Below, in pieces: positions 1-39,509 of a stretch of 58,395 nt of DNA. The notes under the pieces are model-generated. The model was not told the DNA's origin, did no database searches, and saw only the letters and a list, made by a program, of their open reading frames with translations. Source of the stretch: a virus (taxonomy: Duplodnaviria > Caudoviricetes); the IMG/VR virus record IMGVR_UViG_3300022896_000001, positions 1 to 58,395 of that record. One strand, written 5' to 3'. The translations under genes and the position numbers were made by a program. Position 1 is the first letter of the stretch; every line of letters begins with the position of its first letter.

Positions 1-127
1 AGGTTCGCCAAGCTGCCCTCGACAGGCTCGCCGCCGTTGACTTCGTGCCCGATGTGGACCCGGCCCGGTACGAGCGGATGCTGTCCGCCCTGCACGACCA
101 GGAGTGGCGGCCACTGCACACCCAGGT
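1..127. repeat. Terminal 127-bp direct repeat (copy 1), circular-assembly overlap
   Basis: 1-127 is identical to 58269-58395; an ORF reads continuously across the join. Confidence 0.95.
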
Positions 128-905
128 CGACTCGAACTGGATCCGGTGGTGCGAATGGCCGGACTGCCTCCGTTCGTTCAACGTCCTCACCGGACCGGAC
201 CCGAAGACCGACGGCGCGGGCTGGATCTACCTCCGGACCGGGACGCACCTCCTGCTCTGCCCCGACCACGCGAACGCCGGCCACCGGCCGCAGCACTTCG
301 CCGACTGGAAACCGGGCGACACCACCATCAACACGTCGTGCGAGTGCGGCGAACGCGGCTACGGGCTGGCACCCGCGAGCACCACGGTGTGCGTGGAGTG
401 GTGGCGCCACCACGTCCGCCAGCTGCCGGAGCAGCCTGCCGCCGAGGCTGAGCCCGACCAGGACCTGGTGCAGCGGACTGCGCGGGAGCTGGCCGGGTTT
501 CAGCTTCGGCTCGGCCCGAACACCTTGGCGGCGATCCGTGCCGGGCAGGACCAAGTGCTGCTCACCGGCGGCGAACGGGACGACGTCGCCCGTGCCGCCG
601 TGGCCGCTCTCCACGGCGGCACCCCACCCATCCGAGAGGACTTCACCCCCATGATCGACCTCGACGCCCAGGCCCAGCGTGAACTGCTGGAGCTCGCGGC
701 CCGCGCAGTCATTGAGGACCAGTTCGCTTCCACCGGCACCGTCCAGCGCAGGTGCAGGGTCGGCTACGCCACCGCCGAGCGGCTGATGGACCAGCTGCAC
801 GAGCTCGGCGTGGTCAGCCCAAGGGAAGGCACACGTGCACGCGACGTGCTGGTGACCGTGGACCAGGTGGACGAGGTCGTCGCCCGGATCCGCGGTGCGG
901 CGTGA
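1..905 (+). CDS. Cys-rich hypothetical protein with C-terminal FtsK-gamma (winged-helix) domain; true start ATG 58241 across the circular join
   Basis: C-term AARAVIEDQFASTGTVQRRCRVGYATAERLMDQLHELGVVSPREGTRARDVL matches the FtsK gamma pattern; internal RBS GAGAGGA + in-frame ATG 651. Confidence 0.8.
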   Translation, partial: VRQAALDRLAAVDFVPDVDPARYERMLSALHDQEWRPLHTQVDSNWIRWCEWPDCLRSFNVLTGPDPKTDGAGWIYLRTGTHLLLCPDHANAGHRPQHFADWKPGDTTINTSCECGERGYGLAPASTTVCVEWWRHHVRQLPEQPAAEAEPDQDLVQRTARELAGFQLRLGPNTLAAIRAGQDQVLLTGGERDDVARAAVAALHGGTPPIREDFTPMIDLDAQAQRELLELAARAVIEDQFASTGTVQRRCRVGYATAERLMDQLHELGVVSPREGTRARDVLVTVDQVDEVVARIRGAA

Positions 906-1011
906 CCGCGGCGAGCGACCGAGCCCGCGGCGCGTGGGTCCTCGTCCGGATGCTGGCCACGATCGTCCGGTACACCGTGGGCGGCTGGCTCCAGCGGATC
1001 GGCGGCCGAAG

Positions 1012-1179
1012 ATGACCGGCACCGGCAACTTCGAGGGCGGTGCCAAGAGCCTGCTACAGCCCATCCCGCCGACCGAACTCGAAGAGCGCCGCGCGAGCCG
1101 CGTCGTGGCGGCCCGCGCGGTGGACGTGCAGGACTGCGTGCTCCTGCTGGACATGCTCGGTCTGTACCCCAAGGCGTGA
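1012..1179 (+). CDS. Small hypothetical protein (actinomycete D..LLLDMLGL-type)
   Basis: ATG overlaps the upstream stop; C-term VAARAVDVQDCVLLLDMLGL. Confidence 0.6.
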   Translation: MTGTGNFEGGAKSLLQPIPPTELEERRASRVVAARAVDVQDCVLLLDMLGLYPKA

Positions 1180-1356
1180 CCTGGCTTCGAGTGCTCCTGC
1201 GGCGCCTGATCTGGCTGCACATGGCCTGCCCGTGGTGCGGGAGGGAACTCGACACCGCACCGCTGCTCGCGAAGCCGCATGAGGTTCTTGCCTGGCACGA
1301 ACCCCGCTGCCCGGTCGAACGCTGACGAATTCGTGTGGCCTCGCGTGGCGGCTAGC

Positions 1357-1785
1357 TCAGGCGCGCGGTGCCTGCGTCTCTGGGGTCGTGTCGGCGGGCT
1401 CGTTCGACGCCTGGTGGTGGAGCTTCATCGCTTCGGAGCGGGTGCGTCGCTCTACTCCGGCGTCGTCGAGCATCCGCCTCACGGCCTTCACGCTGATGTC
1501 GTAGCGGGCGGCGAGGTCGCTGGTGGAGCGGCCGGCCTTGTAGTCCTCGACGAGGCCGTCGGGGGTGGGCAGCTTGGGCGGGGCCATGTCGCGGCGTCCC
1601 TTGCCGGGGGCGGCGGCGACCGCGGCGCGGACCTGGTCGGCGAGGTAGCGATGGCGGCCGGTGCGGCCAGTCTCGCGGTCGACGGGTTCGACGCCGAGCC
1701 GGGACATGCGTTTGCGGACGTAGTCGATGTCGATCTCGCAGTGGGCGGCGACTTCCGCGCTGGTCCACACCTCGGGGGTAGTCAT
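1357..1785 (-). CDS. Double helix-turn-helix DNA-binding protein, probable regulator of the divergent cassettes
   Basis: WTSAEVAAHCEIDIDYVRKRM and GRSTSDLAARYDISVKAVRRML HTH-like segments. Confidence 0.75.
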   Translation of the reverse strand: MTTPEVWTSAEVAAHCEIDIDYVRKRMSRLGVEPVDRETGRTGRHRYLADQVRAAVAAAPGKGRRDMAPPKLPTPDGLVEDYKAGRSTSDLAARYDISVKAVRRMLDDAGVERRTRSEAMKLHHQASNEPADTTPETQAPRA

Positions 1786-1791
1786 CCCTCA

Positions 1792-1821
1792 ATGATGTCC
1801 CATGATGGGACTGGGTTGCAA
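1792..1821 (-). promoter_or_regulatory. Probable leaderless promoter of the HTH gene containing operator GTCCC-N5-GGGAC
   Basis: Minus strand TTGCAA-N18-CATCAT-N6-ATG; GTCCCATGATGGGAC at 1797-1811. Confidence 0.55.
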
Positions 1822-1879
1822 GTGTGCTGATCAGGGGCTATGTCGGAGGTGAGATGTATTCATAGCTAAAGCATGTTTC

Positions 1880-1970
1880 GCGTCCGTTCGAGTGAACCGA
1901 GGGATAAGGCTTGCAGTATGTCCCACAGTGGGACATACTTTAGGAACAAGCAGCGAAACGAGCCAAGGAG
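1880..1970 (+). promoter_or_regulatory. Repeated promoter/operator/RBS unit, copy 1
   Basis: GCGTCCGTTCGAGTGAACCGA...TTGCAG-N17-CATACT; perfect palindrome AGTATGTCCCAC-A-GTGGGACATACT 1915-1939; AAGGAG RBS. Confidence 0.8.
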
Positions 1971-1976
1971 AACCCC

Positions 1977-2378
1977 ATGACCGCCGCCACCGCCACTGTC
2001 GCCACCACCCCCGGTCAGGCCGCCCGCCTCGCCCTGATCCACGCCGACACCGACAACCCGATCACCCTCAGCCCCCTCCCGGGCGGCCTGCTCAAGGTCA
2101 CGGAGCACGAGGACGGCGAGGAGTACTCCTCGATCCTCGACCTCGACGGCGTCCCCGTGGACCGCGCCACCGGCGACGGCGCCCAGGTCCACTTCGACAG
2201 CGAGGCGGAGGCCGTCGCGTACTTCGCCGAGCGCTTCGTCGGCGAAGGCCCCGCCGAGATCGCCCGCTACGTGGAGCTGCTCCAGGCCGACATGGTCGAG
2301 CAGGGGGAGAACCCCGACCTCTGGTGGGACGGCATCGCCGCCGGCGAGCTCGTCACGTACCTCTTCGGCCTCATCTAG
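1977..2378 (+). CDS. Small acidic hypothetical protein (N-domain shared with 2564..2965, C-domain shared with 3112..3333)
   Basis: Good RBS, GC3-rich codons, internal paralogy. Confidence 0.85.
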   Translation: MTAATATVATTPGQAARLALIHADTDNPITLSPLPGGLLKVTEHEDGEEYSSILDLDGVPVDRATGDGAQVHFDSEAEAVAYFAERFVGEGPAEIARYVELLQADMVEQGENPDLWWDGIAAGELVTYLFGLI

Positions 2379-2466
2379 CGCGCCGGGCCTGCCTGGTGGT
2401 CCGCCCTTGGCGGTGTCGGGCGGGTCCGGCGGTCGCGCCTGTGGGGTGGCTGCGCGGTGGGTTGGT

Positions 2467-2557
2467 GCGTCCGTTCGAGTGAACCGACGTGCTGGGGCTT
2501 GAAGTATGTCCCGCAATGGGGCATACTTTAGGAACAAGCAAAGAACAAGCCAAGGAG
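2467..2557 (+). promoter_or_regulatory. Repeated promoter/operator/RBS unit, copy 2
   Basis: Same 21-bp leader; TTGAAG-N17-CATACT with AAGTATGTCCC-GCAAT-GGGGCATACTT; TTAGGAACAAGC...CCAAGGAG. Confidence 0.8.
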
Positions 2558-2563
2558 CCCCCG

Positions 2564-2965
2564 ATGACCCGCACCGCCGCCCAGACCGCCCGCATCGCCC
2601 AGGCCCGCCAGGACGCCACCGCCGCCGGCACCCGCATCGCCACCCGCACCCTCCCCACCGGCCACGTCCGAGTCACCGAGCACGACGGCAACACCAAGGC
2701 CTCCCTGGACCTCGACACCGACGGCCAGTACGTCGGCCAGGCCGCCCCGGCCAAGGCAGCCAAGCTGGCCACGAAGAAGGCCACCAAGGCGGCGACGTGG
2801 ACCATCGGCGCGGACATCGCCGACCGGGTCGCCCTCACCCTGTTCAACGGCATGTCGGACGAGGTCAAGGCCGAGTTCGTCGCCACCCTCGCCCCCGAGG
2901 AGCTCGCCACCCTGAAGGACGGCCTGAAGCGGGGCCGCGAGCTCCGGGCCCGAGCCGCCCGGTAG
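2564..2965 (+). CDS. Hypothetical protein
   Basis: AAGGAG RBS + ATG 2564; LPTGHVRVTEHDG resembles LPGGLLKVTEHEDG of 1977..2378. Confidence 0.85.
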   Translation: MTRTAAQTARIAQARQDATAAGTRIATRTLPTGHVRVTEHDGNTKASLDLDTDGQYVGQAAPAKAAKLATKKATKAATWTIGADIADRVALTLFNGMSDEVKAEFVATLAPEELATLKDGLKRGRELRARAAR

Positions 2966-2970
2966 CGGGC

Positions 2971-2996
2971 GGGGCCCGCCGCCCCCGGCGGGCCCC
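2971..2996 (+). terminator. GC-rich hairpin after gene
   Basis: GGGGCCCGCCG-CCCC-CGGCGGGCCCC perfect 11-bp stem. Confidence 0.6.
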
Positions 2997-3111
2997 AAGG
3001 GCTCGGGGGAGCACGGGTGCCGGCCTCGCGTGAGACGGCGCCCAAGTGGATCGATTGCCTATGAATGTTTCGGGGTTCCGACCCCCACCACCCACAACAC
3101 AGGAGCCCCAC

Positions 3112-3333
3112 ATGCCCACGAAGAACACCGACGGCGGACTGACCTTCCTCGACACCGAAGCCGAGGCCATCGCCTACCTCGCCGAGCGGTTCCCCAACGA
3201 GCCCCCCGCCCGCATCGCCCACTTCGTCACCCTCACCCGCGCCGACATGGTCGAGCAGGAGGAGAACCCCGACCTCTGGTGGGACGGCATCGACCGCGAC
3301 GAGCTCGTCACCTACGTCTCCGGCCTCATCTAG
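3112..3333 (+). CDS. Small acidic protein, paralog of the C-domain of 1977..2378
   Basis: AGGAG RBS; shared ADMVEQ.ENPDLWWDGI...ELVTY..GLI. Confidence 0.85.
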   Translation: MPTKNTDGGLTFLDTEAEAIAYLAERFPNEPPARIAHFVTLTRADMVEQEENPDLWWDGIDRDELVTYVSGLI

Positions 3334-3425
3334 CTGGCCGGGCCCGGCGGCTCCGCCTGGACAGCACGCCACCGGACCCGGCTCCCAACACCCACTGCCC
3401 ACCAGCCCGACAGGGGACACCGATC

Positions 3426-3971
3426 ATGCCCGACCACACCACCGCAGGAGTCACTGCCGCCCTCGTCTACACCGCCCTGTTCGCCGCCCACGGACTCGGC
3501 GACCACTGGGTCCAGCGCACCTGCGACGCCCTCGGCAAAGGCGCAGCCAACCGCCGCGGCCAGCTCGCCTGCGCCTGGCACGTCACCACCTACACCCTCA
3601 CCACCACCGTCGCCGTGCTGCTCGTGATGGGACTCCCGCTCGGCGCCCACATCACCGTGGCCGGGTTCGCCGCCGGCCAAGCCTTCTCCGCGGCCACCCA
3701 CTACGCCATCGACCGCCGCTGGACACTGCTGCGCCTCGCGAACCTGACCGGCAACCGCGAGTTCCACGACCTCGGCGCACCCCGCCCACTGACCGTGCTC
3801 GCCCGCAAACGGACTCCGGTCAACGCACCCGCAGGCACCGTCCACGACGAGACGGTCGAGGTCGAGATTCCGCTGGACAACCCCACCTACTCGACCGGCG
3901 CCTACGCGCTCGACCAAGCCCTGCACGTGGCCCTGCTGTTCGTGTCCGCACTGCTGACCGCCCTCGTCTGA
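3426..3971 (+). CDS. DUF3307-like membrane protein
   Basis: AHGLGDHWVQ, THYAIDRRW and LDQALH motifs with hydrophobic helices. Confidence 0.75.
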   Translation: MPDHTTAGVTAALVYTALFAAHGLGDHWVQRTCDALGKGAANRRGQLACAWHVTTYTLTTTVAVLLVMGLPLGAHITVAGFAAGQAFSAATHYAIDRRWTLLRLANLTGNREFHDLGAPRPLTVLARKRTPVNAPAGTVHDETVEVEIPLDNPTYSTGAYALDQALHVALLFVSALLTALV

Positions 3972-4225
3972 TGGGGGGCCACTCACGGACACTGGCGGAG
4001 GTCAGGGCTGGTCGGTCGTTCCTCTGGAACTCCCAGCGGGGCTGGCTGCTCGTCGGCCCCACGGACGCCCTGACGCGCGCCGCGGCGGCCCGGCCCCGCG
4101 GGAGCATCCGGGTCTCCACGGACGCGGGCGGGACCGTCACGGTCCGGGTCATGCGCGTGGTCGGCTCGTGGACGCGTGACGGCGTCGACTACTCGACCGC
4201 CGTCTTCACCCGGCTCCCCACCTGA
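3971..4225 (+). CDS. Hypothetical protein
   Basis: TGATG coupling to upstream gene. Confidence 0.5.
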   Translation: MGGHSRTLAEVRAGRSFLWNSQRGWLLVGPTDALTRAAAARPRGSIRVSTDAGGTVTVRVMRVVGSWTRDGVDYSTAVFTRLPT

Positions 4226-4320
4226 CCGCTGCCCCTGGGTCCTTCGCTGGCCCAGGGGCAGCCCCACGCCCGCGGGACGTAGCATCCGGTCGCCCGCCAG
4301 GAACACCCCGAGGAGCCCCT

Positions 4321-4527
4321 GTGACCGCACCCGACACCACCACGCCCGACCTGGCCAGCGCCGTCGCCTACGTCCTGGTCGACCCGACCCGCAGCACCGG
4401 CACCTGGTGGGTCACCCCCGACCGGGTCGTTCACTACCAGCGGCCGACCGGCGAGTGGACGCCACCCGCGATCGTCTCCGCCGACGACATCGAGGACTCG
4501 CCGACCTGGAAGCGCGCCGACAGCTGA
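4321..4527 (+). CDS. Hypothetical protein
   Basis: GAGGAG RBS + GTG. Confidence 0.7.
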   Translation: MTAPDTTTPDLASAVAYVLVDPTRSTGTWWVTPDRVVHYQRPTGEWTPPAIVSADDIEDSPTWKRADS

Positions 4528-4538
4528 CCCCGCACAGC

Positions 4539-4575
4539 ACGAGGGCCCCACACCGCGATGGTGTGGGGCCCTCGT
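4539..4575. terminator. Bidirectional terminator-like hairpin between convergent units
   Basis: ACGAGGGCCCCACACC-GCGAT-GGTGTGGGGCCCTCGT perfect 16-bp stem. Confidence 0.75.
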
Positions 4576-4588
4576 CGTGTCCCGGGGC

Positions 4589-4912
4589 TCACCGCCGACC
4601 GGCAGGAACCTCACGCTCCTCATCCTCAAGCGGGCGCAGCGGAAGGGTCCTGGCCAGCAGCCACAGCAGTGCGTAGACGACCACCTCGACACTGGCGATC
4701 AACTGCGCCGCGCGGAACCCCGCGATGACGTGGAACCCGCCGATGAACCCCAACGCGACCAACCAGTACTTGAACCGCGCCACGGCCTCGGCGAAGCGCA
4801 GGTGCCGGGTCGTGGCCAACGTGCCGACCAGCAACAGCAACGCGAGACCCCACGCCGCCATCGTCAGCAGCGACGTGTCCAGGTCCGGGAACGGGCGCAG
4901 GTCTAAGTCCAT
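4589..4912 (-). CDS. Small membrane protein, last gene of the transfer operon
   Basis: About three hydrophobic helices. Confidence 0.7.
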   Translation of the reverse strand: MDLDLRPFPDLDTSLLTMAAWGLALLLLVGTLATTRHLRFAEAVARFKYWLVALGFIGGFHVIAGFRAAQLIASVEVVVYALLWLLARTLPLRPLEDEEREVPAGRR

Positions 4913-4949
4913 ACCCGCGAGGGTCCCTCCACCGCCGGCGGGTCGTCAA

Positions 4950-5041
4950 CCTCACCTCACCCCTCACCTCACCCCGCCACCCTGTCCCCCACCAGCAGAT
5001 ACGGGGGAGGGGGTGGGTGAGGTGAGGTCCGTGAGGTGAGG
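4950..5041. repeat. GTGAGGTGAGG repeats (2 inverted + 2 direct), candidate clt/TraB recognition sites
   Basis: CCTCACCTCAC at 4950 and 4962; GTGAGGTGAGG at 5017 and 5031. Confidence 0.7.
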
Positions 5042-7120
5042 CAGCTCGTACACCCCGATCGTCGGGTTCGCCAACCTCCCGGACAGCTTGAGGTCCGCGA
5101 GCACGTTGTTCAGCACGCCCTCGGTCGGCTCGGCGCCCGAGGCCGTCAGCCCGGCGCGGATGTCCTTGCGGCGCATCCGCCCACCGGCGTCGGTCACGAG
5201 CTGGACGATGCGGTCGCCCCACGTCAGGTCCGGTACCACCGCCTCGACGACAGGCGCGGGCAGCTCGGTCACCGGCGGCGCGGCCGGGAGCGCCTTGGGC
5301 TGAGGCATCACCTGCGCCAGGAACGCGTCCGCCTCGGCCGCGACCTCCGCCGCCTCGTCCCGCACCACCGGTGCGGGCTGACCGACACCGCGCAGGTAGT
5401 CGCGGTGCGCCGCGGTCATCCGCTGCGGGCGGTCCGCGTAGAACGCGCCCGCCGCGCGCGCCGACCCGGTATCCAGCGGGCGGCGCTGACCAGCACGAAC
5501 CCGCGCGATCTCCCGGACCGTGGGCCCGTCGTGCAGGCGCGGCTTCGCCGGGTCGGACTCCTGCGGGTAGAACAGCTTCGCGTGCACCGGGTCCCGGTGA
5601 TCCTGCACGTAGGCCTCGCCGGGGTTGTACAGGTTGGGCAGCCCGTAGAAGCGGTCGCCGAACGCTCGCCGCCGTTCGTCGCCGCTGGAGGACCGGCACA
5701 GCACGGTGACGCCCACGTTGTTCTTGATGCTGGCGGCCTCTTTGCCGAACATCTCGTGGTCGTAGTCCTGCGCCGACCACACCCAGTACACCTGCGCCGA
5801 CAGCGTCGAGCGGGCGCCGTGCCCGGTCAGCTCGGACGCGGTGTACTTGCGGCCCTCCCAGGTGATCTGCCTCGTCGTGTCCATGAGCACCCGCGGGGAC
5901 TCGGTCATCACGATCCACAAGGGGGTGAGGTCACCCTTTTGAGCTGCGGAAAGTCCCTGCCGGTAGCGGGCGACGCTCATCGCGGCGGCCATCATCTTCA
6001 GGGTGTCGTCCATGCCCTGCACCGCCCAGATCGGCAGGTCGATGTCCTCGCCGACGAACTGGTCGAGGTGGTCCTCCAGCGTTGCCCACACCTTCTCCGC
6101 GCCGCAGAACCACACCTCGCCACGCGCTTGGCCTTCAGCGACGACGACGTTCTCCAGCCCGGACTTGCCCGAGCCGGTGGGACCGACGATGACCCAGTGC
6201 TGGCGGGGGTTGACCTGCACGTCCTGGGCGCGGATGTCCAGGCCGATGGTCATCTTGTCCGGGTCGCGCGGGGTGGCGTCGAGCGCGGTGTAGGGCTTGG
6301 CCTTGGCCATGACGTCCTCGGTGGTCACGGTGACCACGACCCGCCCGGCGGCGCGCTTGGAGGTGACCTGCACCCAGTCGGTCATCATCTCCACCCCGGT
6401 CAGCGACTGGATCGTGGTCGCGATGACCTCACAGTCTGCGCTGGTCAGCGGGGTGAGGTCCTTCACCTTGAGCTTCGGGAACGGCTTGGACGGGTCGGCG
6501 GCGTGCTCGGCTTTCGCGGCGCGCTCGGCGGCCTGCAACGGGGTGAGCATCTGCAACTCCCACCAGCCGCCGTAGCCGAGCGCGCCGTCGGCGACCTGGT
6601 CGTAGTGGTCCTTGCCGATCTGGCGCAGCACTTCGGTCATCAGTCCGGCCGCGGTCGGCGGGACCTCGGCGTCCACGACGGAGGCCACATGCCGCTCGGG
6701 TACGGCGACCTGGGCGCGGGGCTTCACGTGGGTGACCTGGTAGTCCCACCACGCGGCGAGCACCCACTCCAGCGCCCCGAGCCCGACCAGCAGCCCAGCA
6801 GTCCACTGCCAGGTCCACAGGCCGTGCGGGGCGATCAGCGCCCACAGGGCGTGGGCGGTGGCCGCGGCGGTGGTGGCGCGCGCCATGTTCAGCCGGGAGC
6901 TGTAGCCGATCGCCTCGAACACCATGCCGCCGAGGAACACCGCGCGCGCCCACACAGTGACCCCGACCGCCGCGACCAGCACGACCAGCACGGCGGCCCA
7001 CGTCGGCGCGCCCAGCACGGCGGGCAGCACCGCGACCGCGCCGGTGGCGAGCATCCCCGCCAGCACGCAGACGGTCTTCGTGGAGACCTTCGGCTCGTCG
7101 TCGTCACGTCGCTGGTTCAT
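4964..7120 (-). CDS. traB: TraB-like FtsK/SpoIIIE conjugative DNA translocase
   Basis: N-terminal TM helices, Walker A GPTGSGKS, WIVMTE Walker B-like, PGEAYV motif, C-terminal wHTH (GGRMRRKDIRAGL...LNNVLADLKLSGRLANPTIGVY); GGAG RBS before ATG 7120. Confidence 0.8.
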   Translation of the reverse strand: MNQRRDDDEPKVSTKTVCVLAGMLATGAVAVLPAVLGAPTWAAVLVVLVAAVGVTVWARAVFLGGMVFEAIGYSSRLNMARATTAAATAHALWALIAPHGLWTWQWTAGLLVGLGALEWVLAAWWDYQVTHVKPRAQVAVPERHVASVVDAEVPPTAAGLMTEVLRQIGKDHYDQVADGALGYGGWWELQMLTPLQAAERAAKAEHAADPSKPFPKLKVKDLTPLTSADCEVIATTIQSLTGVEMMTDWVQVTSKRAAGRVVVTVTTEDVMAKAKPYTALDATPRDPDKMTIGLDIRAQDVQVNPRQHWVIVGPTGSGKSGLENVVVAEGQARGEVWFCGAEKVWATLEDHLDQFVGEDIDLPIWAVQGMDDTLKMMAAAMSVARYRQGLSAAQKGDLTPLWIVMTESPRVLMDTTRQITWEGRKYTASELTGHGARSTLSAQVYWVWSAQDYDHEMFGKEAASIKNNVGVTVLCRSSSGDERRRAFGDRFYGLPNLYNPGEAYVQDHRDPVHAKLFYPQESDPAKPRLHDGPTVREIARVRAGQRRPLDTGSARAAGAFYADRPQRMTAAHRDYLRGVGQPAPVVRDEAAEVAAEADAFLAQVMPQPKALPAAPPVTELPAPVVEAVVPDLTWGDRIVQLVTDAGGRMRRKDIRAGLTASGAEPTEGVLNNVLADLKLSGRLANPTIGVYELPHLTDLTSPTPSPVSAGGGQGGGVR

Positions 7121-7143
7121 CGGATACTCCCTGCTCAGACAGG

Positions 7144-7175
7144 TCGGGGGCCCGTACCGCAGCACGGGCCCCCGA
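7144..7175 (-). terminator. Hairpin upstream of traB
   Basis: TCGGGGGCCCGT-N8-ACGGGCCCCCGA. Confidence 0.5.
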
Positions 7176-7192
7176 GGTGGACGGGTGGGTGG

Positions 7193-8860
7193 TCAGTCGG
7201 CTTGCTCGGCGGAGCGGCTGGTGAAGTGCGCCGACAGGAGCCGGTTCTTCTCGGCGTCGCCCTCCAGCGCGGCGGCCTTCGCGTTGAGCTCGGTGACCCG
7301 GTCGGGGAACTTCGCCGCGGCGCGGGCGTCGGCGCGCAGCCGCTCCGCCTCCTGGACGAGGGCGAGGTGGCGGGCGGAGGCGTCGCTGGCGGCCTCGTTG
7401 AGCGCGTTCTTGCGCTCGGCCGCCGTGGACTCCTCGGTGAGGTTCTCGAAGTGGTTCGCGAAGTCGGTGACGGCGACGGTCATGGGGTCTCTCCTGGTCG
7501 TGGTGATGACGTGCGATTCGTGGTGTTCGTGCTGTTCAGGGGGGTGAGGTGAGGCATGAGGTGAGGGGTGAGGTGGAGGTGAGGGCTTGCCCTTGTCGTG
7601 GTCTCTGGGCCAGGCGTAGTCGTCGACCGTGGACTGGCCGGGCCACACGTAGTCGTCGGCGGTCTGGCCGGGCCACCAGTCGGGCATCGGGTCGGTCTCG
7701 CCCTCGTCGATGCCCGTGGTGAACTTCTTCGGCGGGCCGGGCTTGAACGGGGTCCGGAGCGCGTCGGCCACGGCGTGCCCGTCGACGGCGCGGACCTGGT
7801 TGCCGACGAACGTGGCGAACCCGGAGTACGCGCTGCGGGCTCCGCGGCCGACCAAGCGCCACGCGCCGGACGAGTCCGACGACGAGCCGTGGCCCTTGCT
7901 GCCGCCTCCCGACCCTCCCTTGCTCCCGCCCTTGCCCTTGCCGCCGCCGTTGCCTCCGGACTTGCCGCCGCCGCGGGAGCCTCCCGGCGAGCCCTTGCCC
8001 CTCCCGCCCGACGGCCTCCCGCCTCCCGTGCCGGGGCTCCCGAGCCTCCCGCCCGACACCCGGTTCAGCAGGCTCCTGCCGCGCCCGCGGGACGAGGTGC
8101 TCCCGCCTCCCGTGCCACCCTTGCTCCCACCCTTGCCCGGCCCCTTGCCGGGAGCCCTCCCGCCGGACCTCCCGCCCGACCTCCCGGTGGAGCCGTGAGC
8201 CGACCGGGCTCCCGAGACGCCACGCGGGAGGAACCTTCCGAGGCTCCCGCCCGACGACCTCCCGCCCGACCGGGAGCCTCCCGACCGGGCACCGGACCGG
8301 GAGGACAGGAGGCCGCGCGCCTTGCCCAGGAGGCCACCCCGCCGGGAGGCTCCCGGGAGCCCTCCCGCCGTGCGCCTCCCGCCGGGAGCTCCCGCCTTGG
8401 CCGGGAACCTCCCGCCCGTGAGGCTGCGAAGCCGGGAGGCGAACCTCCCGTTGCGGGCGCGCGCCAGCCCGGACCTCCCGCGGCCTCCCGCCGACCGCAG
8501 CGCACGGCCGAGGCGGGTCCCGCCCAGCGCGCGGCCGAGCCGACCCGCGCCCGCCCGACGCCCGCCACGGCCGCGGGCCAGCTGCCAGCCCAGCGCCCCC
8601 AGCCCGGCCAGCAGCACCAAGCCGCCGAGGATCAAGCCGAGGGAAGGGCTGGCCAGCGACGACACCACCACCGCGGCAACCACAAGCAGCGGCACGCCGA
8701 GCCGGAGCAGCGCGGTGGCCAGCGGGACACCGGTGGTGCCGAACGTCGGCAGACCCTCCGGCTCGTCGACCGGCGACGCGGGTGCAGCGGCTGGCGAGGT
8801 CGGTGCGGGCCGAGGGCTCAGGGTGAGCGGGGGCCGCGGCGGCGGGGTCGGGGTGCTCAT
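7193..8860 (-). CDS. Spd-like membrane protein with Gly/Arg-rich linker and C-terminal coiled coil (internal start 7483)
   Basis: Two N-terminal TM helices, low-complexity centre; AGGAGAG RBS before in-frame ATG 7483. Confidence 0.7.
   Translation of the reverse strand: MSTPTPPPRPPLTLSPRPAPTSPAAAPASPVDEPEGLPTFGTTGVPLATALLRLGVPLLVVAAVVVSSLASPSLGLILGGLVLLAGLGALGWQLARGRGGRRAGAGRLGRALGGTRLGRALRSAGGRGRSGLARARNGRFASRLRSLTGGRFPAKAGAPGGRRTAGGLPGASRRGGLLGKARGLLSSRSGARSGGSRSGGRSSGGSLGRFLPRGVSGARSAHGSTGRSGGRSGGRAPGKGPGKGGSKGGTGGGSTSSRGRGRSLLNRVSGGRLGSPGTGGGRPSGGRGKGSPGGSRGGGKSGGNGGGKGKGGSKGGSGGGSKGHGSSSDSSGAWRLVGRGARSAYSGFATFVGNQVRAVDGHAVADALRTPFKPGPPKKFTTGIDEGETDPMPDWWPGQTADDYVWPGQSTVDDYAWPRDHDKGKPSPPPHPSPHASPHPPEQHEHHESHVITTTRRDPMTVAVTDFANHFENLTEESTAAERKNALNEAASDASARHLALVQEAERLRADARAAAKFPDRVTELNAKAAALEGDAEKNRLLSAHFTSRSAEQAD
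7544..7584 (+). repeat. Second cluster of (G)TGAGGTGAGG repeats
   Basis: Copies at 7544 and 7557, degenerate copy at 7568-7584. Confidence 0.7.
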
Positions 8861-9275
8861 CCGGTCTGCTCCCGGTGCTCCTGCTCGGCGGCCTCGACGA
8901 ACTTCTTCGCCCGGGACGCCCCGATCCCGAGAGCCTTCTTCACGCGGTCGGCGGTCGGGAGCTCCCGGTGCTCCTGCTCCCAGGAAGCGATGAACTCCCG
9001 GATGTCCTCGTCGGAGCGGGAGGCCCTCATCGGGAGCACCTGGTGCTCCCGCCCCAGGGAGGCTCCCGGCTCTGCGGCAGCCTCCCGGTCGGGCTCCCGC
9101 TCGGCGGGCGGGAGCACCACGGGAGCTCCCGGCGGGAGCACGACGGCGGGAGCTTCGGGAGCCTCCTGCTTGCCGGGAGCCGGGACGCGGGCCATCACGG
9201 TCGAAGCGGGAGCCTGCTGCTCCACGGCGGGCGGGAGCACCTCCTCCTGCTCCGGGACGGCGGGAGCCTCCCGGA
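7905..9275. repeat. Dense CGGGAG(C)/(G)CTCCCG motif arrays in both orientations across two genes
   Basis: Many copies, including palindromic GGGAGCTCCC (about 8384, 8957, 9121). Confidence 0.7.
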
Positions 9276-9735
9276 CCGGCTCATCGTCCGCGCGGAGCAT
9301 GTGCAGCAAGGCCGCGGTCATCCCGACGATCGCGATCGGCAGGCACGCCACCCCGACCACGATCTGCCACGGCGCCACGCGCTGCCCGAACGTCTCCAAG
9401 AGGTGGTACGCCACCTGGCCCAGCGCGCCGAGCACGAGGGCGGTGATCCCGGAGACCATCGCGAACGTGCGGGTGCGGTCCGACATCGGCCGGGACGACA
9501 GCCACACCCCGAGCGCGTAGGCCGCGTAGGCCTCGATCCCGAGCGGGAGGGTGATCGCGGAGTTGATGACGAACTCGTCGGCGATGCCGGGCAGGAGCTT
9601 GACGGGGCCGAACCCGGCCTTCTCGCCGAGGCCGACCCACCCGGACCAGGTCGCGACGAACGCGGGCGCGGCGATGGCGATGAGCGGCCAGCGTCGGGCT
9701 CGCCCGTCAGCGGGGGTGGGCTTGGATCCGAACAT
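8857..9735 (-). CDS. SpdB2/DUF2637-like membrane protein with C-terminal HTH
   Basis: About four TM helices (AFVATWSGWVGLG, LPLGIEAYAAYALGVW); C-term PTADRVKKALGIGASRAKKF; GGAG RBS before ATG 9735. Confidence 0.75.
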   Translation of the reverse strand: MFGSKPTPADGRARRWPLIAIAAPAFVATWSGWVGLGEKAGFGPVKLLPGIADEFVINSAITLPLGIEAYAAYALGVWLSSRPMSDRTRTFAMVSGITALVLGALGQVAYHLLETFGQRVAPWQIVVGVACLPIAIVGMTAALLHMLRADDEPVREAPAVPEQEEVLPPAVEQQAPASTVMARVPAPGKQEAPEAPAVVLPPGAPVVLPPAEREPDREAAAEPGASLGREHQVLPMRASRSDEDIREFIASWEQEHRELPTADRVKKALGIGASRAKKFVEAAEQEHREQTG

Positions 9736-9758
9736 GGTGAAGGTCTCCCAGTGGTGGG

Positions 9759-10253
9759 TCAGAGGAGGCGGGCGAGGTCGCGGCCAGACACGAAGCCGTC
9801 CTCCAGCAGAGCTGCGGCCATCGCCTCGACCGCACCCCACTGCTCGACGAGCAGGTCGTAGCTCCAGGCGTAGGCCGCGTCGACGGTCAACGCGGTGAGA
9901 CGGACCAGGTCGCGGACCTTGCCCGCGTCGGAGGGGTTGTCGTACACGGCGGCCCGGCGTCGGGACTTGAAGCTGCCCCCGCAGACCGCGGCGGTCCACA
10001 GCGCTTCGGCGTCGATCCCGGCCGCGGCGATGAGCTGGTCGTCGGTGTCGTCGTAGTCCTTGGCGTCGACGAACCCTTCGACGGACCACGAGGTGAAGAA
10101 GAAGCCGGAGCGGACGGTGGTGATGCTGGCGCTGACGACGGGCAGCTCTCGTGCGAACGCGGCGAGGGCGTGCCCGGCCTCGTGGTGGGCTGCGCGTTCG
10201 CGTTGCAGTTGGAGTTGCTGCTGTTTGCCTGAGGTGAGCACGCCCGGGAGCAT
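9759..10253 (-). CDS. Stand-alone M41/FtsH-like zinc peptidase domain protein
   Basis: AAHHEAGHAL HExxH motif; downstream AAG..AE and SD motifs; ..AALLEDGFVSG end. Confidence 0.7.
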   Translation of the reverse strand: MLPGVLTSGKQQQLQLQRERAAHHEAGHALAAFARELPVVSASITTVRSGFFFTSWSVEGFVDAKDYDDTDDQLIAAAGIDAEALWTAAVCGGSFKSRRRAAVYDNPSDAGKVRDLVRLTALTVDAAYAWSYDLLVEQWGAVEAMAAALLEDGFVSGRDLARLL

Positions 10254-10340
10254 GGCGGGACCTTCCAGTTGGAGACGACTTGGTGAGGGCCCGGTCGGGG
10301 CGGGGTCTTCTTGGCGGACGGCGCCCGCCCCGACCGGGGG

Positions 10341-10607
10341 CTAGAGGGTGGAGGCGTCCGCGGCGGCGAGCAGCAGACCCGTCTCGGCGAGGCCGCGGTA
10401 CGTCCCGGCGAGCTCGGTCAGGATCGACACGCGGGCCTGGATCCGCGACTCGTTTGCGTAGAGGCCTTGGGCTTCGATGGCGGCGTGGCGGGCCAGGGTG
10501 ACCGCGGCTGCCTGGTTCTCTTCCGGGTTGGTCGGGGGCTGGTCGGCGAGGCTCTTGAGGTAGGCGCTGACGTGGCCGAGGGGGCGACTGGTGTGGGTGG
10601 TGTTCAT
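10341..10607 (-). CDS. Hypothetical protein
   Basis: GAAGGA RBS, ATGA coupling. Confidence 0.65.
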   Translation of the reverse strand: MNTTHTSRPLGHVSAYLKSLADQPPTNPEENQAAAVTLARHAAIEAQGLYANESRIQARVSILTELAGTYRGLAETGLLLAAADASTL

Positions 10608-10756
10608 TCCTTCGGTCCCAGCGTCTTGGCGACGGCGATCATCAGGGCGGGGTCCTCCTTGAAGGCGTCGAGGACCAGGTCGTTGAGGCGCTGGATGCGC
10701 CGGGAGAGATTGGCCACGGCCACGGCCACGGGGTCGGGTTGCTTGTCGGCGCTCAC
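10604..10756 (-). CDS. Hypothetical protein
   Basis: GGAG RBS + GTG 10756. Confidence 0.55.
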   Translation of the reverse strand: MSADKQPDPVAVAVANLSRRIQRLNDLVLDAFKEDPALMIAVAKTLGPKE

Positions 10757-10790
10757 GGTGTTCTCCGGTTCTGTGCGGGTGTCCTGAAGG

Positions 10791-10976
10791 TCAGTCCAGG
10801 ACGGTGACGGGGTGGTCCGGGGTGGCGGTGTAGTCGCCGCCGGTGGTGATGACGAGGAGGTCGCCATCCAGGTAGGGGGAGTCGCCGACGAGCAGGACGT
10901 GGGCGGTGTTGCCGCCGTCGGGGTTGATGATGCTGTCCCCTGCGTTGAGGTCTGCGGCGGTCTTGGTGCTGGTCAC
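10791..10976 (-). CDS. Hypothetical protein, first gene of the transfer operon
   Basis: AGGAG RBS + GTG. Confidence 0.65.
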   Translation of the reverse strand: MTSTKTAADLNAGDSIINPDGGNTAHVLLVGDSPYLDGDLLVITTGGDYTATPDHPVTVLD

Positions 10977-11024
10977 GGGTGCTCCTGCGTGGTTGACGGG
11001 TTGCGGTGTGTGCCCGGGCTAGGA

Positions 11025-11050
11025 TTGCAGACTTAGCTGTGCGCCTGCAA
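11025..11050. promoter_or_regulatory. Divergent promoter region with inverted repeat TTGCAG-N14-CTGCAA, candidate GntR operator
   Basis: Lies between the divergent tra operon and the gntR gene. Confidence 0.4.
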
Positions 11051-11083
11051 GTATGGTGCCACGAGTTGACCCGAAGGATGGCG

Positions 11084-11902
11084 ATGACCCAACCGGCCGA
11101 CGACCTCACCGCACACCTGCGGGAGCAGATCACCACTGGTGAGCTCGCTCCAGGGGACCGCCTGCCCACCGTCAAAGCCGCCCAAGACCTCTGGCGTGTC
11201 GGCGAGTCCGTCGTCCGGACCGCCTACCGCACACTGGCCGCCGAGGGCCTGGTCCGCGGGTCGCACGGCCGCGGCACGGTCGTGCTCGGCCCCGCGCTGA
11301 TCCGCATCGCCCGGCACCGGGCGATGTTCCGGGACCGGCTCGGCTACTACTTCGACCCCGAGGGCCAAGACCTGCGGCTAGTCGGGAAGCCCACCGTCGA
11401 GGTACTGCCCGCGTCCCCGGACATCGCACTCCGCCTGCAAGTGCCGCCAGGGTCGCCGGTGGTGGTGCGGGATCGGGTGCTCGGCAGGCCGGGCACGAAA
11501 CGGACCCGGCCGACGCCTCTGCAAATCGCAACCAGCTACCTGCCCGGCTGGCTCCACGCAGTGCTCCCGATCATCGGCGAGCCGATCACTGGGCCAGGTG
11601 GGATCTACGACCGGATCGAGGAGCACTTCGGGCGGCCGTTGGCGGATCCGGTGGAGGCGCAGGGGGCGGTGTCCGCGACGGCCGCCGAGGCGAAGCGACT
11701 GAACGTCCCGGCTGGGGCGGCACTGGTCCGGATCGCGCGGACGACCGCGCTGGAGGACGGGCGGCCGGTCGAGGTGAACGACACCCGCATGGACGGTGCC
11801 CGGTTCGAGACGGTGATCGTGCTGGCACGCGACGAGTCGGCAGGGTGGCCGCCGGACCCAGCTGTGGAATCACCCGTAGCACCAAGCGAGGAGAACGACT
11901 GA
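11084..11902 (+). CDS. GntR/HutC (UTRA) regulator, KorSA/TraR-like
   Basis: LREQITTGELAPGDRLPT...VRTAYRTLAAEGLV...GRGTVV; UTRA PLQIATSYLP, GPGGIY, DGRPVEV. Confidence 0.92.
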   Translation: MTQPADDLTAHLREQITTGELAPGDRLPTVKAAQDLWRVGESVVRTAYRTLAAEGLVRGSHGRGTVVLGPALIRIARHRAMFRDRLGYYFDPEGQDLRLVGKPTVEVLPASPDIALRLQVPPGSPVVVRDRVLGRPGTKRTRPTPLQIATSYLPGWLHAVLPIIGEPITGPGGIYDRIEEHFGRPLADPVEAQGAVSATAAEAKRLNVPAGAALVRIARTTALEDGRPVEVNDTRMDGARFETVIVLARDESAGWPPDPAVESPVAPSEEND

Positions 11903-11973
11903 TGTCCCGGCTGCTGCCCTAGCCGGCTACTGTCCCTCGTGGAGCGGAACTCCCCCCGACGCTCCGTCCTCAA

Positions 11974-12003
11974 GCTGCCCCCGCGCTCCCCTGCGGGGGC
12001 AGC
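11974..12003 (+). terminator. Hairpin after gntR
   Basis: GCTGCCCCCGC-N8-GCGGGGGCAGC. Confidence 0.55.
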
Positions 12004-15299: not shown

Positions 15300-16571
15300 A
15301 TGCCGACGCAGCCGCTCGGAGGGAAGGCCCGCGAGTCGGTCCGGCAGGCCACAGCGCGCGGGAACTTGTGGGAGGGCGCGGTCCGGTCGTCGAAGACCGT
15401 GTCGTCGATCGTGCGGTGGCTGAAGTACGTGCGGAACGGGCCGCCAGGCGCGCTGCTGATGGTCGGGAAGACCGAGCGGACGCTGAAGCGGAACATCATC
15501 GACCCGATCCAGGCCATGGTCGGGGTGAAGCGGTGCCGGTTCAAGGTCGGCGTCGGCGAGCTGGAGTTGTTCGGCCGGACGATCTACGTGGTTGGCGCGA
15601 ACGACGAGCGGTCCAGCGACAAGATCAAGGGCCTGACGCTGTCCGGGGCGTACTGCGACGAGCTCACCACCTACCCCGAGTCGTTCTTCTCGATGCTCAC
15701 CACCCGCCTCTCCGTGCCGGGCGCGCAGTGGTTCGCGACAACGAACCCCGAGGGCCCTGGCCACTGGGTGAAGAAGAAGTACGTCGACCGCGCGAAGCTC
15801 CGCATCACCCGCGACGGCCAGATCGTCCGCTCCGACGACCCGACGGCGCTGGACCTGCACACCTTCGCGTTCCAGCTCGCCGACAACCCCACCCTGCCCG
15901 CGGCGTACGTCGAGGAGCTGAAGCGGGAATACGTCGGCCTGTTCTACCGGCGGTACGTGCTCGGCGAGTGGTGCCTGGCCGAGGGCGTTGTCTACGACAT
16001 GTGGGACCCCGACAAGCACGTGGTCACCACAGCCCAGATGCCCGCGATCAGCAGGCACATCGCGCTCGGCATCGACTACGGCACGGTCAACCCGTTCGCC
16101 GGGCTACTGCTCGGGTTGGGCGCTGACCAGCGGCTGTACCTGACCAACGAGTACCGGTACGACTCGAAGGCTCAGCGGCGGTCGTTGACGGACGCGGAGT
16201 ACTCGCGGGAGCTGACCCTGTGGCTGGACAAGCTCCAGGTGTTCCCCGAGTGGACAGCGGTCGACCCCAGCGCGGCGTCGTTCGTGCAGCAGCTCTACCG
16301 CGACGGCCGGGTCACCCCGACCCTCGCGAACAACTCCGTGATCGACGGCATCCGGCAGCTGTCGTCCCTGCTCGCGACCGACCGGCTTCGGGTGCACGAC
16401 TCGTGCAAGGGGTGGATCGAGGAGATCCCCGGCTACTCGTGGGACCCGAAGAAGGCACTTCGAGGCGAAGACGCGCCGATCAAGGTCGGCGACCACTCGC
16501 TCGACGCGGGCCGGTACGCGGTCCACACCACCGAAGCCATCTGGCATGGCCAACTCAAGGAGGCAGCGTGA
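15300..16571 (+). CDS. terL: Terminase large subunit (PBSX-type)
   Basis: GAVRSSKT Walker A, AYCDE Walker B, TTNP, GIDYG, VDPSA, DHSLDAGRY nuclease motifs. Confidence 0.97.
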   Translation: MPTQPLGGKARESVRQATARGNLWEGAVRSSKTVSSIVRWLKYVRNGPPGALLMVGKTERTLKRNIIDPIQAMVGVKRCRFKVGVGELELFGRTIYVVGANDERSSDKIKGLTLSGAYCDELTTYPESFFSMLTTRLSVPGAQWFATTNPEGPGHWVKKKYVDRAKLRITRDGQIVRSDDPTALDLHTFAFQLADNPTLPAAYVEELKREYVGLFYRRYVLGEWCLAEGVVYDMWDPDKHVVTTAQMPAISRHIALGIDYGTVNPFAGLLLGLGADQRLYLTNEYRYDSKAQRRSLTDAEYSRELTLWLDKLQVFPEWTAVDPSAASFVQQLYRDGRVTPTLANNSVIDGIRQLSSLLATDRLRVHDSCKGWIEEIPGYSWDPKKALRGEDAPIKVGDHSLDAGRYAVHTTEAIWHGQLKEAA

Positions 16572-22024: not shown

Positions 22025-23092
22025 ATGCCCATCACCCTGGCGCAGGCGCAGATCAACGCCCGCGACGACATCGACCACGCGGTCATCGACAACCTGCGGC
22101 GCTACTCGTGGCTGTGGGACCAGATCATCTGGGACGACACGGTCACGCCCGGCACGGGTGGTGCCAGCCTCACCTACGGCTACACCCTGCTCACCGCGGC
22201 GCGGCAGGGCCAGTTCCGGCAGATCAACCAGGAGTACACCGCCCAGTCGGCCAGCCGCGAGCAGCGCTCGACGACGCTGAAGCCGTTCGGTGGCGCGTAC
22301 ACCCTGGACCGCATCCTGCGCGGGTTGGGCCCGGCTGCGACGAACGAGGAGACGTTCCAGACGCAGCAGCTTATGAAGGGCGCGACGACCAGCCTCATGG
22401 TCGAGATCGTCAACGGCGACACCGCGGTGAACACCGCCGGGTTCGACGGCCTGGACAAGCTGCTCACCGGTCAGGCCACCGAGTACACGCCCAACAGCGG
22501 CGGCACCGCGTACACGTCGTGGGCGCCCGGCGCGATCGACACGCAGGAGAAGGCCAACCTCCAGCTGGACATCCTGGAGGAGTGGCTGTCCTCCATCACC
22601 CCGTCCATCGTGGGCGGCGGCGACATGAGCGCGGACGCCGGTCTGCCCGGCGGTGTGAAGGCCATCCTGGGCAACACCAAGTCCATCACCCGCCTCAAGG
22701 CGCTGGCGCGGTGGGCGAACCTGCACACCTCCACGCTGGAGACTTTCGGCGGCGTGCAGCGCCGGGTCGAGCGGTACGGCGAGTGGGTGCTCCAGGACAT
22801 CGGCGACAACGCCCTCGGGTCGGCGCCGGTCATCCCGATCGAGACCCGCGACCCGGACGGCGTCGGCGGTGGCGGCAACATCACCAACCTCACCGACCTC
22901 TACGCGGTGTCGTTCGGCCTGGACGCGTTCCACGGCGCGTCCATGGCGGGCAAGCCGCTCGTCGCCTACTACCCGCCGGAGTGGAACACCCCCGGCGCGG
23001 TCAAGACCGGCGAGCTGGAGATCGGCCCCGGCGCGATGATCCTGCGCAACACCAAGGCCTGTGGCGTCCTGCGCAACGTGAAGGTGGCGTGA
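22025..23092 (+). CDS. Major capsid protein
   Basis: MPITLAQA, FRQINQEY, LKPFGGAYTLDR, GFDGLDK, GVLRNVKV. Confidence 0.92.
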   Translation: MPITLAQAQINARDDIDHAVIDNLRRYSWLWDQIIWDDTVTPGTGGASLTYGYTLLTAARQGQFRQINQEYTAQSASREQRSTTLKPFGGAYTLDRILRGLGPAATNEETFQTQQLMKGATTSLMVEIVNGDTAVNTAGFDGLDKLLTGQATEYTPNSGGTAYTSWAPGAIDTQEKANLQLDILEEWLSSITPSIVGGGDMSADAGLPGGVKAILGNTKSITRLKALARWANLHTSTLETFGGVQRRVERYGEWVLQDIGDNALGSAPVIPIETRDPDGVGGGGNITNLTDLYAVSFGLDAFHGASMAGKPLVAYYPPEWNTPGAVKTGELEIGPGAMILRNTKACGVLRNVKVA

Positions 23093-39254: not shown

Positions 39255-39509
39255 TGCCTCACGCCTGCCTCACGCCCCGGCCTGCGAGCCCTCCCCTCTG
39301 AGGAGTTCTCGCAGGCCAGAGCAACTGCGGTGGGGCCGGAGAGACTCGAACTCTCACTGGCACGGACCTAGTTGCACCATATACCGCAGTCTTCCGCAAC
39401 TTGGCGCGCTCTCCACCCGTGGTCAACACGGCGGTCCGCTACGCCGTCCGCGATGAACCGCAGTCCGCCGCAACCGCTCTCAATGAGGTTGCCTCACCCG
39501 GTGCCTCAC
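39255..39509. other. attP region with arm-type sites
   Basis: Paired TGCCTCAC repeats at 39255/39266 and 39490/39502 flank the tRNA-like core. Confidence 0.75.
39329..39370 (-). other. attP core = 3' half of tRNA-Leu(TAG)
   Basis: Minus strand TAGGT-CCGTG-CCAGT-GAGAG-TTCGAGT-CTCTC-CGGCCCC-ACC: anticodon, T-arm and acceptor 3' strand; 5' half absent. Confidence 0.8.

Follow-up and report, generated by a model that had tools for sequence, protein, structure and literature searches.

The question raised by positions 1357 to 4575 of the viral sequence IMGVR_UViG_3300022896_000001 (IMG/VR; Duplodnaviria, Caudoviricetes), whose full 58,395 nt are the window analysed here, is what controls the small genes found there and what they are for. 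An original prediction, made from the letters alone, had described an operator-controlled array resembling the loci in which anti-CRISPR (Acr) genes are governed by an anti-CRISPR-associated (Aca) repressor. The sequence anatomy of this cassette, the paralogy of two of its genes, its synteny with other loci and the swapped regulator in a relative are matters of observation. From these, the cassette is probably, if by no means assuredly, a small self-contained accessory regulon of a temperate actinophage, gated by an autorepressor and arranged for a burst of expression followed by shut-off. As such it is a new orphan-protein case of a repressor-gated accessory regulon in a temperate phage. By analogy, an Acr/Aca-like logic is plausible; membership of the Acr/Aca class is not supported by the sequence comparisons.

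Duplicated promoter units and shared palindromes

The unit that had been described as ~90 bp and duplicated before two small genes was found as ~97 nt at 1880-1976 and again at 2467-2563, with a copy spacing of 587-588 nt, ahead of the paralogous open reading frames ORF1 and ORF2. Each copy starts with the predicted identical leader of 21 nt on the + strand (distal box 1, 1880-1900; distal box 2, 2467-2487; 21/21 positions). This 21-mer occurs twice, against 0 expected, both times at the duplicated units. The remaining parts that had been listed, namely a -35 hexamer, a palindromic spacer, a -10 hexamer, TTAGGAACAAGC and AAGGAG, are all present by sequence, with hexamers that are weak. Putative promoter P1 (1911-1939, + strand) reads TTGCAG, a 17-nt spacer and CATACT, and putative promoter P2 (2499-2527, + strand) reads TTGAAG, a 17-nt spacer and CATACT; both were read by eye, in register with the other promoters. 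TTAGGAACAAGC has two exact occurrences, both at the duplicated units. At the first of them it opens an A-rich, unstructured 5' untranslated region (5'UTR; 1940-1976, + strand) with AAGGAG at 1965-1970, the fold energy of which (-2.8 kcal/mol) is no better than that of shuffled sequences. The leaders of ORF1 and ORF2 are both unstructured.

Over the 50 nt that include the -35-like hexamer, palindrome, -10-like hexamer and TTAGGAACAAGC, positions 1908-1957 match 2496-2545 with 88% identity; for the 38 nt of 1957-1994 and 2544-2581, which take in AAGGAG and the start codon, the figure is 79%. When identity is counted by segment, the two copies agree in 21/22 columns of the distal box, 40/44 from the -35 hexamer to TTAGGAACAAGC, 17/25 in the remaining 5'UTR, 115/209 in the coding region and 6/30 upstream of the box. 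Thus, the regulatory part has been kept far better than the duplicated genes.

The distal box contains GTTC-N4-GAAC, which is found at the two distal boxes only, and at the first unit its centre lies at about -55 from the predicted transcript start. The box was not found in the 5 comparison loci examined. The actinobacterial LexA box has the form GAAC-N4-GTTC, and an assignment of the distal box to LexA was rejected given that its halves stand in the opposite order. A second site for the two-module regulator described below is one possibility for the box, and an activator site another.

The palindromes are the element that joins the two units to the regulator gene. Putative operator O1 (1915-1939) is a perfect palindrome with 12-nt arms, a 1-nt centre and 48% GC, and putative operator O2 (2503-2527) is an imperfect copy of it with the core GTCCCGCAATGGGGC. 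The third, putative operator O_H (1797-1811; GTCCCAT-G-ATGGGAC), lies in the inferred promoter of the divergent regulator gene, P_hth (1792-1821, - strand), which was read by eye as TTGCAA (1821-1816), an 18-nt spacer and CATCAT (1797-1792). The core GTCCC-N5-GGGAC is exact at 1797-1811 and 1920-1934 and has 1 mismatch at 2508-2522, so that the predicted sharing of one core with the divergent promoter is borne out, and in the same register as in P1 and P2. All three sites fall within 730 nt, each across the spacer and the -10-like hexamer. With the three promoter regions aligned in one register, 22/42 columns are invariant, giving the common pattern CTTG.A, spacer, GTCCC-N5-GGG(A/G)CAT and then TT.AGG. 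The palindrome across the spacer and -10 region of three promoters, one of them the regulator's own, makes steric repression by the regulator the simplest mechanism. Moreover, the half-site centres, read from the sequence, are 10 bp apart, a distance that suits a dimeric HTH (helix-turn-helix) protein.

The loose core GTCCC-N5-GGGAC is not rare, with 4 matches against 7.9 expected. The extended 19-mer, searched in the 58-kb genome with up to 2 mismatches, occurs at the same three sites only (2, 0 and 1 mismatches). At 70% GC, 12-nt arms do not by themselves make a perfect palindrome extraordinary, as shuffled sequences reached 15-nt arms; it is recurrence and register, rather than O1 alone, that carry the argument. 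The whole-genome list of inverted repeats was uninformative. The form of the GTCCC-N5-GGGAC palindrome with 16 specified bases was found in 0/401 Pseudonocardiaceae genomes, which favours a binder encoded by the phage over one from the host.

The regulator and the cargo genes

The regulator gene (1357-1785, - strand) encodes 142 aa with an isoelectric point (pI) of 8.8 and a third-position GC fraction (GC3) of 0.91. It had been read as a divergent double-HTH gene, and two HTH modules (residues ~8-58 and ~75-108) are seen by profile matches, with helices predicted by AlphaFold2 (AF2) at low confidence. The N-terminal module matches phrog_34233, phrog_57 and PADLOC mad1, and the C-terminal module gave a string of Pfam HTH matches, confined to residues 77-119 and all under the cut-off. 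Structure prediction, which had been proposed as a check, was of partial use: the single-sequence AF2 model of the regulator contains two helical modules, at a low predicted local distance difference test score (pLDDT 61), and that of ORF1 (pLDDT 73.5) matches no known fold. The homodimer prediction for the regulator scored 0.01. The ATG follows the -10 hexamer of P_hth by 6 nt, with no Shine-Dalgarno sequence and no in-frame start upstream; the regulator mRNA, judged by this arrangement, is probably leaderless.

In the 401 Pseudonocardiaceae genomes, 40 had partial matches to the regulator; the best of these (E 4e-9 to 6e-8) cover residues 1-73 only, and the C-terminal matches cover residues ~68-133 only. 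Scans of viral contigs with the regulator, ORF1, the TraB-like protein described below and an alignment of domain B (see below) gave no matches. Phage Ignacio gp23 was considered as a relative and rejected, as it matches the N-terminal HTH only and has no GTCCC palindrome nearby.

ORF1 (1977-2378, + strand; 133 aa, pI 4.05, GC3 0.98) consists of two domains, A and B, and ORF2 (2564-2965, + strand; 133 aa, pI 9.98) is its paralogue. Domain A is 37% identical between ORF1 and ORF2 (E 2e-6). ORF3 (3112-3333, + strand; 73 aa, pI 4.10) is domain B alone, and over its full length it is 66% identical to domain B of ORF1, which lies at the ORF1 C-terminus (E 2e-30). The C-terminus of ORF2 was lined up with domain B by MAFFT, which suggests a duplication of the entire unit together with its promoter. 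ORF1 and ORF2, which are paralogues, would on this reading go back to a 587-nt tandem duplication that took in the promoter. The domains of ORF2 are separated by an Ala/Lys-rich basic linker (AKAAKLATKKATKAA, 2720-2800) that is like the tails of actinobacterial nucleoid proteins.

Further along, a gene for a DUF3307-type membrane protein (3426-3971, + strand; 181 aa), with Pfam and PHROGs matches, is followed by the orphans ORF5 (3971-4225, + strand; 84 aa, pI 11.86, GC3 0.94) and ORF6 (4321-4527, + strand; 68 aa, pI 4.33, GC3 0.96). The prediction of small and partly very acidic products holds for ORF1, ORF3 and ORF6, and ORF2 and ORF5 are strongly basic. The DUF3307 assignment is marginal in Pfam (PF11750; 23.8 bits against a gathering cut-off of 23.0); phrog_2470 (E 2e-14) and pairwise homologues agree with it, and the blastn matches to plasmids are true DUF3307 homologues. 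The DUF3307 product is the only hydrophobic protein of the cargo and its only membrane protein.

ORF1, ORF2, ORF3, ORF5 and ORF6 had no family match in Pfam, NCBIfam, PHROGs or PADLOC. In the AF2 model of ORF1, domain A is a helix with 3 strands, and domain B is a confident three-helix bundle (pLDDT ~90). The fold search with this model gave no Foldseek match at E <=0.001 in PDB or BFVD (best VIA Z 4.8). The Atlas search with ORF2 gave no usable feature match, and all structure TM scores were <0.5. ORF1 had no tblastn match in phages or plasmids, and its word-index search returned only the query. An exhaustive HMMER search for domain B among 1.84 billion representatives found only three other 50%-identity clusters (68-69 aa); two further matches were to repetitive long proteins and were regarded as spurious.

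Only ORF1 and ORF2 lie directly behind palindromes. Each is followed by a possible terminator, a GC-rich hairpin after ORF1 (2384-2428, + strand; z -2.1) and a perfect 11-bp all-GC hairpin after ORF2 (2970-2996, + strand). The array ends at a strong hairpin between convergent genes (4528-4586; 16-bp perfect stem, -53.3 kcal/mol, z -6.4), a predicted bidirectional terminator.

Related loci and the phage genome

Three loci with homologous cargo were compared. In a syntenic metagenome contig (L005), a small ORF 47% identical to the product of 1012-1176 is followed by a hairpin and a divergent gene for 62 aa, the product of which is ribbon-helix-helix (RHH)-like, with a weak VapB_antitoxin match. 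Its 119-nt intergenic region contains two related palindromes, with none elsewhere in the 10-kb locus; the palindrome search there gave 3 matches against 0.09 expected, two of the 3 being both strands of one site. Downstream are a domain-B gene, a DUF3307 gene (67% identity) and a WhiB gene. In the Umezawaea tangerina genome (L003), a perfect AT-rich palindrome with 15-nt arms lies directly upstream of a domain-B gene, which is followed by a WhiB gene and a DUF3307-like gene. The palindromes ahead of homologous cargo in L003 and L005 differ from the GTCCC-N5-GGGAC type. In a 58-kb IMG/VR contig (L006), the DUF3307 gene (57% identity) directly follows early-operon genes, and neither a regulator gene nor a domain-B gene was found at that locus. 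Taken together, the three loci show domain-B and DUF3307 cargo conserved at the slot, and a regulator and sites that are exchangeable or absent.

The prediction had likened the array to anti-defence genes in plasmid leading regions. This comparison does not apply, as the molecule is a complete circular temperate tailed-phage genome and not a plasmid. The whole record is a single contig of 58,395 nt with G+C ~70% throughout. Its first ~127 nt (1-127) are repeated as the last ~127 nt (58269-58395) and one gene spans the junction, which indicates a circular assembly of ~58.3 kb. The product of the junction-spanning gene (58241-905) has a C-terminal FtsK-gamma domain; two separate genes (57334-57582 and 58241-905) encode such winged-helix domains, besides the TraB-like protein.

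The PHROGs search identified a full tailed-phage late region on the + strand, with large terminase (15300-16571), portal (17185-18786), major head protein (22025-23092), tape measure (29080-32154), endolysin (37642-38742) and holin (38739-39104) genes, and a tyrosine integrase gene (39439-40632) on the minus strand. The canonical lysogeny switch is the region at 39.4-42.3 kb (39439-42262) beside the integrase gene. Genes for an HExxH (ImmA-like) protein (40629-41021) and a candidate XRE-like repressor (41119-41541), both read by eye, are divergent from the gene for a Cro-like HTH_31 protein (41784-42041), beside which lies an HTH_17 Xis-like gene (42038-42262). This main immunity region is without the cassette palindrome, the sole match there having 3 mismatches. 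A different palindrome, TGGACC-AGC-GGTCCA at ~41623-41637, is a likely operator of the main switch.

The early operon runs from ~41.8 kb across the circular junction to 1325, and the cassette is located between its end and a minus-strand block of genes that includes an FtsK/TraB-like ATPase gene. No hairpin lies at 1325-1357, where the early operon ends and the convergent regulator gene has its 3' end, whereas L005 has a strong one at this place; early transcription may therefore run antisense through the regulator gene. At 45877-45917 a perfect palindrome with 18-nt arms and 54% G+C lies beside a palindrome with 10-nt arms (45840-45866) that carries the same 18-nt word, and these could be an origin or another early-region operator.

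The DNA originates from leaf-litter metagenome runs. A run under a second study code, searched with positions 1-12000, holds short low-depth contigs identical to the phage, which is therefore present in more than one leaf-litter library. Two DNA sequencing runs gave contigs of the same phage only and nothing comparative. Relatives of one phage protein occur in Saccharothrix and Actinosynnema genomes and a domain-B locus occurs in Umezawaea, and on these matches the host is probably a Pseudonocardiaceae-type actinomycete.

The array had also been said to abut a transfer module. The adjacency is real and the layout has a kor/tra-like look; the transfer function is a lead only. The minus-strand block (4589-10976) includes Gly/Ser/Arg-rich and membrane ORFs and the gene for a 733-aa FtsK/TraB-like membrane P-loop ATPase (4964-7165), so assigned by Atlas neighbours, and is divergent from a GntR/UTRA regulator gene (11006-11902) that is without the cassette palindrome. 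The Atlas feature and structure neighbours of the 733-aa protein are actinobacterial FtsK_SpoIIIE clusters, some with a C-terminal winged helix, and serve as a lead only. The protein had no match to Pfam FtsK (PF01580), with only weak P-loop families at E <=0.1, no PDB sequence match and no tblastn match in 72,556 plasmids. Its relatives, all named hypothetical, are 81-90% identical on other metagenome contigs and 42-50% identical in Saccharothrix and Actinosynnema. In Streptomyces plasmids the order is kor-traB-clt, which the block resembles. At the 3' end of the 733-aa gene (4949-5041), the 11-12-nt motif CCTCACCTCAC occurs in four copies, two direct and two inverted, which by sequence are a candidate clt-like recognition site. 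The P-loop region of this protein matches PADLOC mad8 (E 7.4e-6) and the N-terminus of the cassette regulator matches mad1 (E 1.6e-6); these are the only two PADLOC matches of the region, both to MADS parts, and probably reflect generic domain similarity.

Models for the control and role of the cassette

In the mechanism we propose, in which active promoters, a leaderless start, binding and repression by the regulator, the timing and the role of the cargo are all inferred, the 142-aa two-HTH protein would be made from a leaderless mRNA and would bind the GTCCC-N5-GGGAC sites, most likely as a dimer. Filled sites would block RNA polymerase, so that the regulator would keep its own amount in check and silence ORF1 and ORF2. 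In a regulator-free cell, whether after fresh entry of the DNA or after loss of the repressor, P1 and P2 would fire, and the short unstructured leaders with AAGGAG would allow strong translation. As repressor builds up, expression would fall, giving a burst and then shut-off. ORF3, the DUF3307 gene, ORF5 and ORF6, ending at the strong terminator, would be expressed by read-through from P1 and P2 or from a promoter of their own that was not recognised. The cargo would be accessory, with host-interaction or establishment functions, anti-defence being one candidate among several.

Several points weigh against such a regulon. The promoter hexamers are weak matches read by eye (TTGCAG agrees with TTGACA in 3/6 positions), and a generic sigma-70 scan of positions 1-12000, in which 9/12 matches were needed, called no promoter. 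Through the identical distal box, a second factor, possibly an activator, may control P1 and P2. The hairpins that follow ORF1 and ORF2 may cut ORF3 to ORF6 off from operator control. The regulator is poorly modelled by AF2 (pLDDT 61) and has no full-length relative, a word search of 5.8 billion proteins having matched the query itself only. The lack of a regulator in L006 means that gating is not universal for DUF3307 cargo. The search of sequencing runs found no RNA run containing the phage DNA.

If this were a true anti-defence locus, the products of ORF1 to ORF3, and perhaps further cargo, would act on entry against host CRISPR-Cas, restriction or other immunity, and the regulator would be a new Aca-like repressor that prevents harmful over-expression. 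We regard this as unlikely, though it is the foremost of the alternatives. What the original comparison with Acr/Aca loci had right is the inverted repeats within the putative core promoters (O_H, O1 and O2), as asked of Aca sites, one of which belongs to the two-HTH gene itself. These and the burst-then-shut-off design are in favour, as are three cargo proteins that are small acidic orphans and a regulator/operator part that varies among relatives, as arms-race loci would. Acidity alone is weak evidence. According to excerpts of PMC13551039 and PMC9410906, one Aca regulator can control neighbouring operons and an RHH-type Aca exists; multi-operon control and RHH-type Aca proteins in the excerpted PMC13551039 may be set beside the RHH-like regulator of L005. 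As far as excerpts of PMC13551039, PMC9410906 and PMC12282945 describe acr-aca operons (Aca1-Aca14), the cassette is like them in its small putative DNA-binding repressor, core-promoter inverted repeats, predicted regulation of its own and neighbouring promoters, small orphan cargo and regulator fold, HTH or RHH, that changes between relatives. It differs in that one chain has two different HTH modules, the distal box is present in addition and in identical copies, the 5'UTR is free of structured RNA motifs, the host is an actinomycete and no sequence relation emerged in the libraries searched. The regulator gene is also on the opposite strand, divergent from P1, whereas an aca-type gene lies downstream in the same operon. 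For the described Aca families there were generic HTH matches only, all under curated cut-offs, no Aca-specific hidden Markov model (HMM) set having been searched. No known anti-defence cargo was found in Pfam, NCBIfam, PHROGs or PADLOC, with no dedicated Acr library searched, and neither sequence nor fold is similar to any described family. Furthermore, the conserved partners, the DUF3307 membrane protein and, in relatives, WhiB, fit host takeover equally well, and nothing specific speaks for anti-defence. A bolder version, in which this would be the first Acr/Aca-logic anti-defence island in an actinomycete phage, with a new two-HTH autorepressor gating two new inhibitor families (acidic domain-B three-helix proteins and domain-A fusions), a regulator exchangeable between HTH and RHH, and service to both infection and cell-to-cell transfer via the adjoining TraB-type module, we hold to be more doubtful still.

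Two explanations place the cassette within other known phage or plasmid functions, and both seem improbable, to a like degree and slightly beyond that version. The cassette could be a secondary immunity region of the immI kind, the small acidic proteins being antirepressors or modulators of the lysis-lysogeny switch that a two-HTH repressor (RHH in L005) silences in lysogens. In phage P22, the RHH proteins Mnt and Arc control ant, and that immI region is likewise a second self-contained unit away from the main repressor, in which a small repressor and a common operator serve divergent promoters; the RHH-like repressor of the syntenic relative L005 adds to the likeness. The cassette does stand on its own as a small operon under divergent regulation, well away from the main repressor/Cro region of this temperate phage, and small acidic proteins could bind a DNA-binding repressor. 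However, no Ant or KilA-type domain was found in Pfam or PHROGs, the regulator is of the HTH type with two duplicated target promoters, no link leads from the cargo to the XRE-like repressor, and the DUF3307 gene of L006 is simply one of the early-operon genes. The other such explanation treats the cassette as a kil-kor-like part of the TraB-type transfer module, for establishment or intramycelial spread after cell-to-cell transfer, with a Kor-like repressor and zygotic induction in recipients. Excerpts of PMC2440964, which deals with actinomycete integrative and conjugative elements and Streptomyces plasmids, describe Kor repressors that bind kor-tra intergenic inverted repeats, and small Spd proteins. 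With those of the KorA/KorSA/TraR type, as excerpted there, the cassette has in common a divergent repressor gene, an intergenic inverted repeat, a predicted self-regulation and an expected zygotic induction, here from layout. It stands beside the block with the 733-aa FtsK/TraB-like ATPase, divergent from a GntR/UTRA regulator; L003 and L005 have ~700-aa proteins on the opposite strand, downstream of the domain-B and DUF3307 genes; and on a Nocardiopsis plasmid a gene annotated for conjugative transfer has a DUF3307 gene nearby. In contrast, Kor proteins are of the GntR family and the product of 1357-1785 has no GntR or UTRA Pfam match, the orphan cargo, of which DUF3307 alone is hydrophobic, is not recognisably tra or spd, and the element is a tailed phage. 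DUF3307 is also found in ~82-kb Streptomyces phages, the TraB-like protein is without a match in the plasmid set, and of the ~700-aa proteins, the one of L005 gives no significant alignment with the TraB-like protein and the one of L003 is 23% identical (E 6e-4), a weak similarity at best. Least probable of all, in our estimate, is that the palindromes are sites not for the adjacent HTH protein but for another phage or host factor, or are RNA hairpins, and that the HTH gene has an unrelated role, for example in an excisionase-like accessory protein. Its N-terminal module does resemble excisionase/MerR-type HTHs (mad1, and the HTH ends of terminase-small and HNH families), the arm change in O2 keeps a G-U pair if read as RNA, and the distal box implies at least one more site type. 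Yet the promoter of the HTH gene itself has the palindrome too, in matching register; an RNA reading would put the palindrome ahead of the predicted transcript starts; its absence from the 401 host-family genomes searched speaks against a common host regulator, and the phage has a separate HTH_17 Xis-like gene beside cro. In the actinophage phiC31 there is also a repeated, highly conserved promoter/operator unit; the phiC31 sites, conserved inverted repeats at early promoters, are scattered through the early region and bound by the main repressor, whereas the three sites here lie close together and apart from the main switch.

If the autorepressor-gated regulon is real, it would offer a compact, testable repressor/operator pair with three natural sites of graded symmetry and a second conserved box, and a temperate actinophage would produce two very rare protein families in a gated burst. 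If the cargo consists of ordinary early accessory genes, the cassette would be a routine mosaic module. The comparison of the slot, with a two-HTH regulator here, an RHH-like one in L005 and none in L006, provides a small, clean case of regulator swapping before conserved cargo. To our knowledge, the proteins that serve actinomycete phages in anti-defence, antirepression or host takeover have been poorly charted, and regulated orphan cassettes such as this one would be a rational place to look for them.

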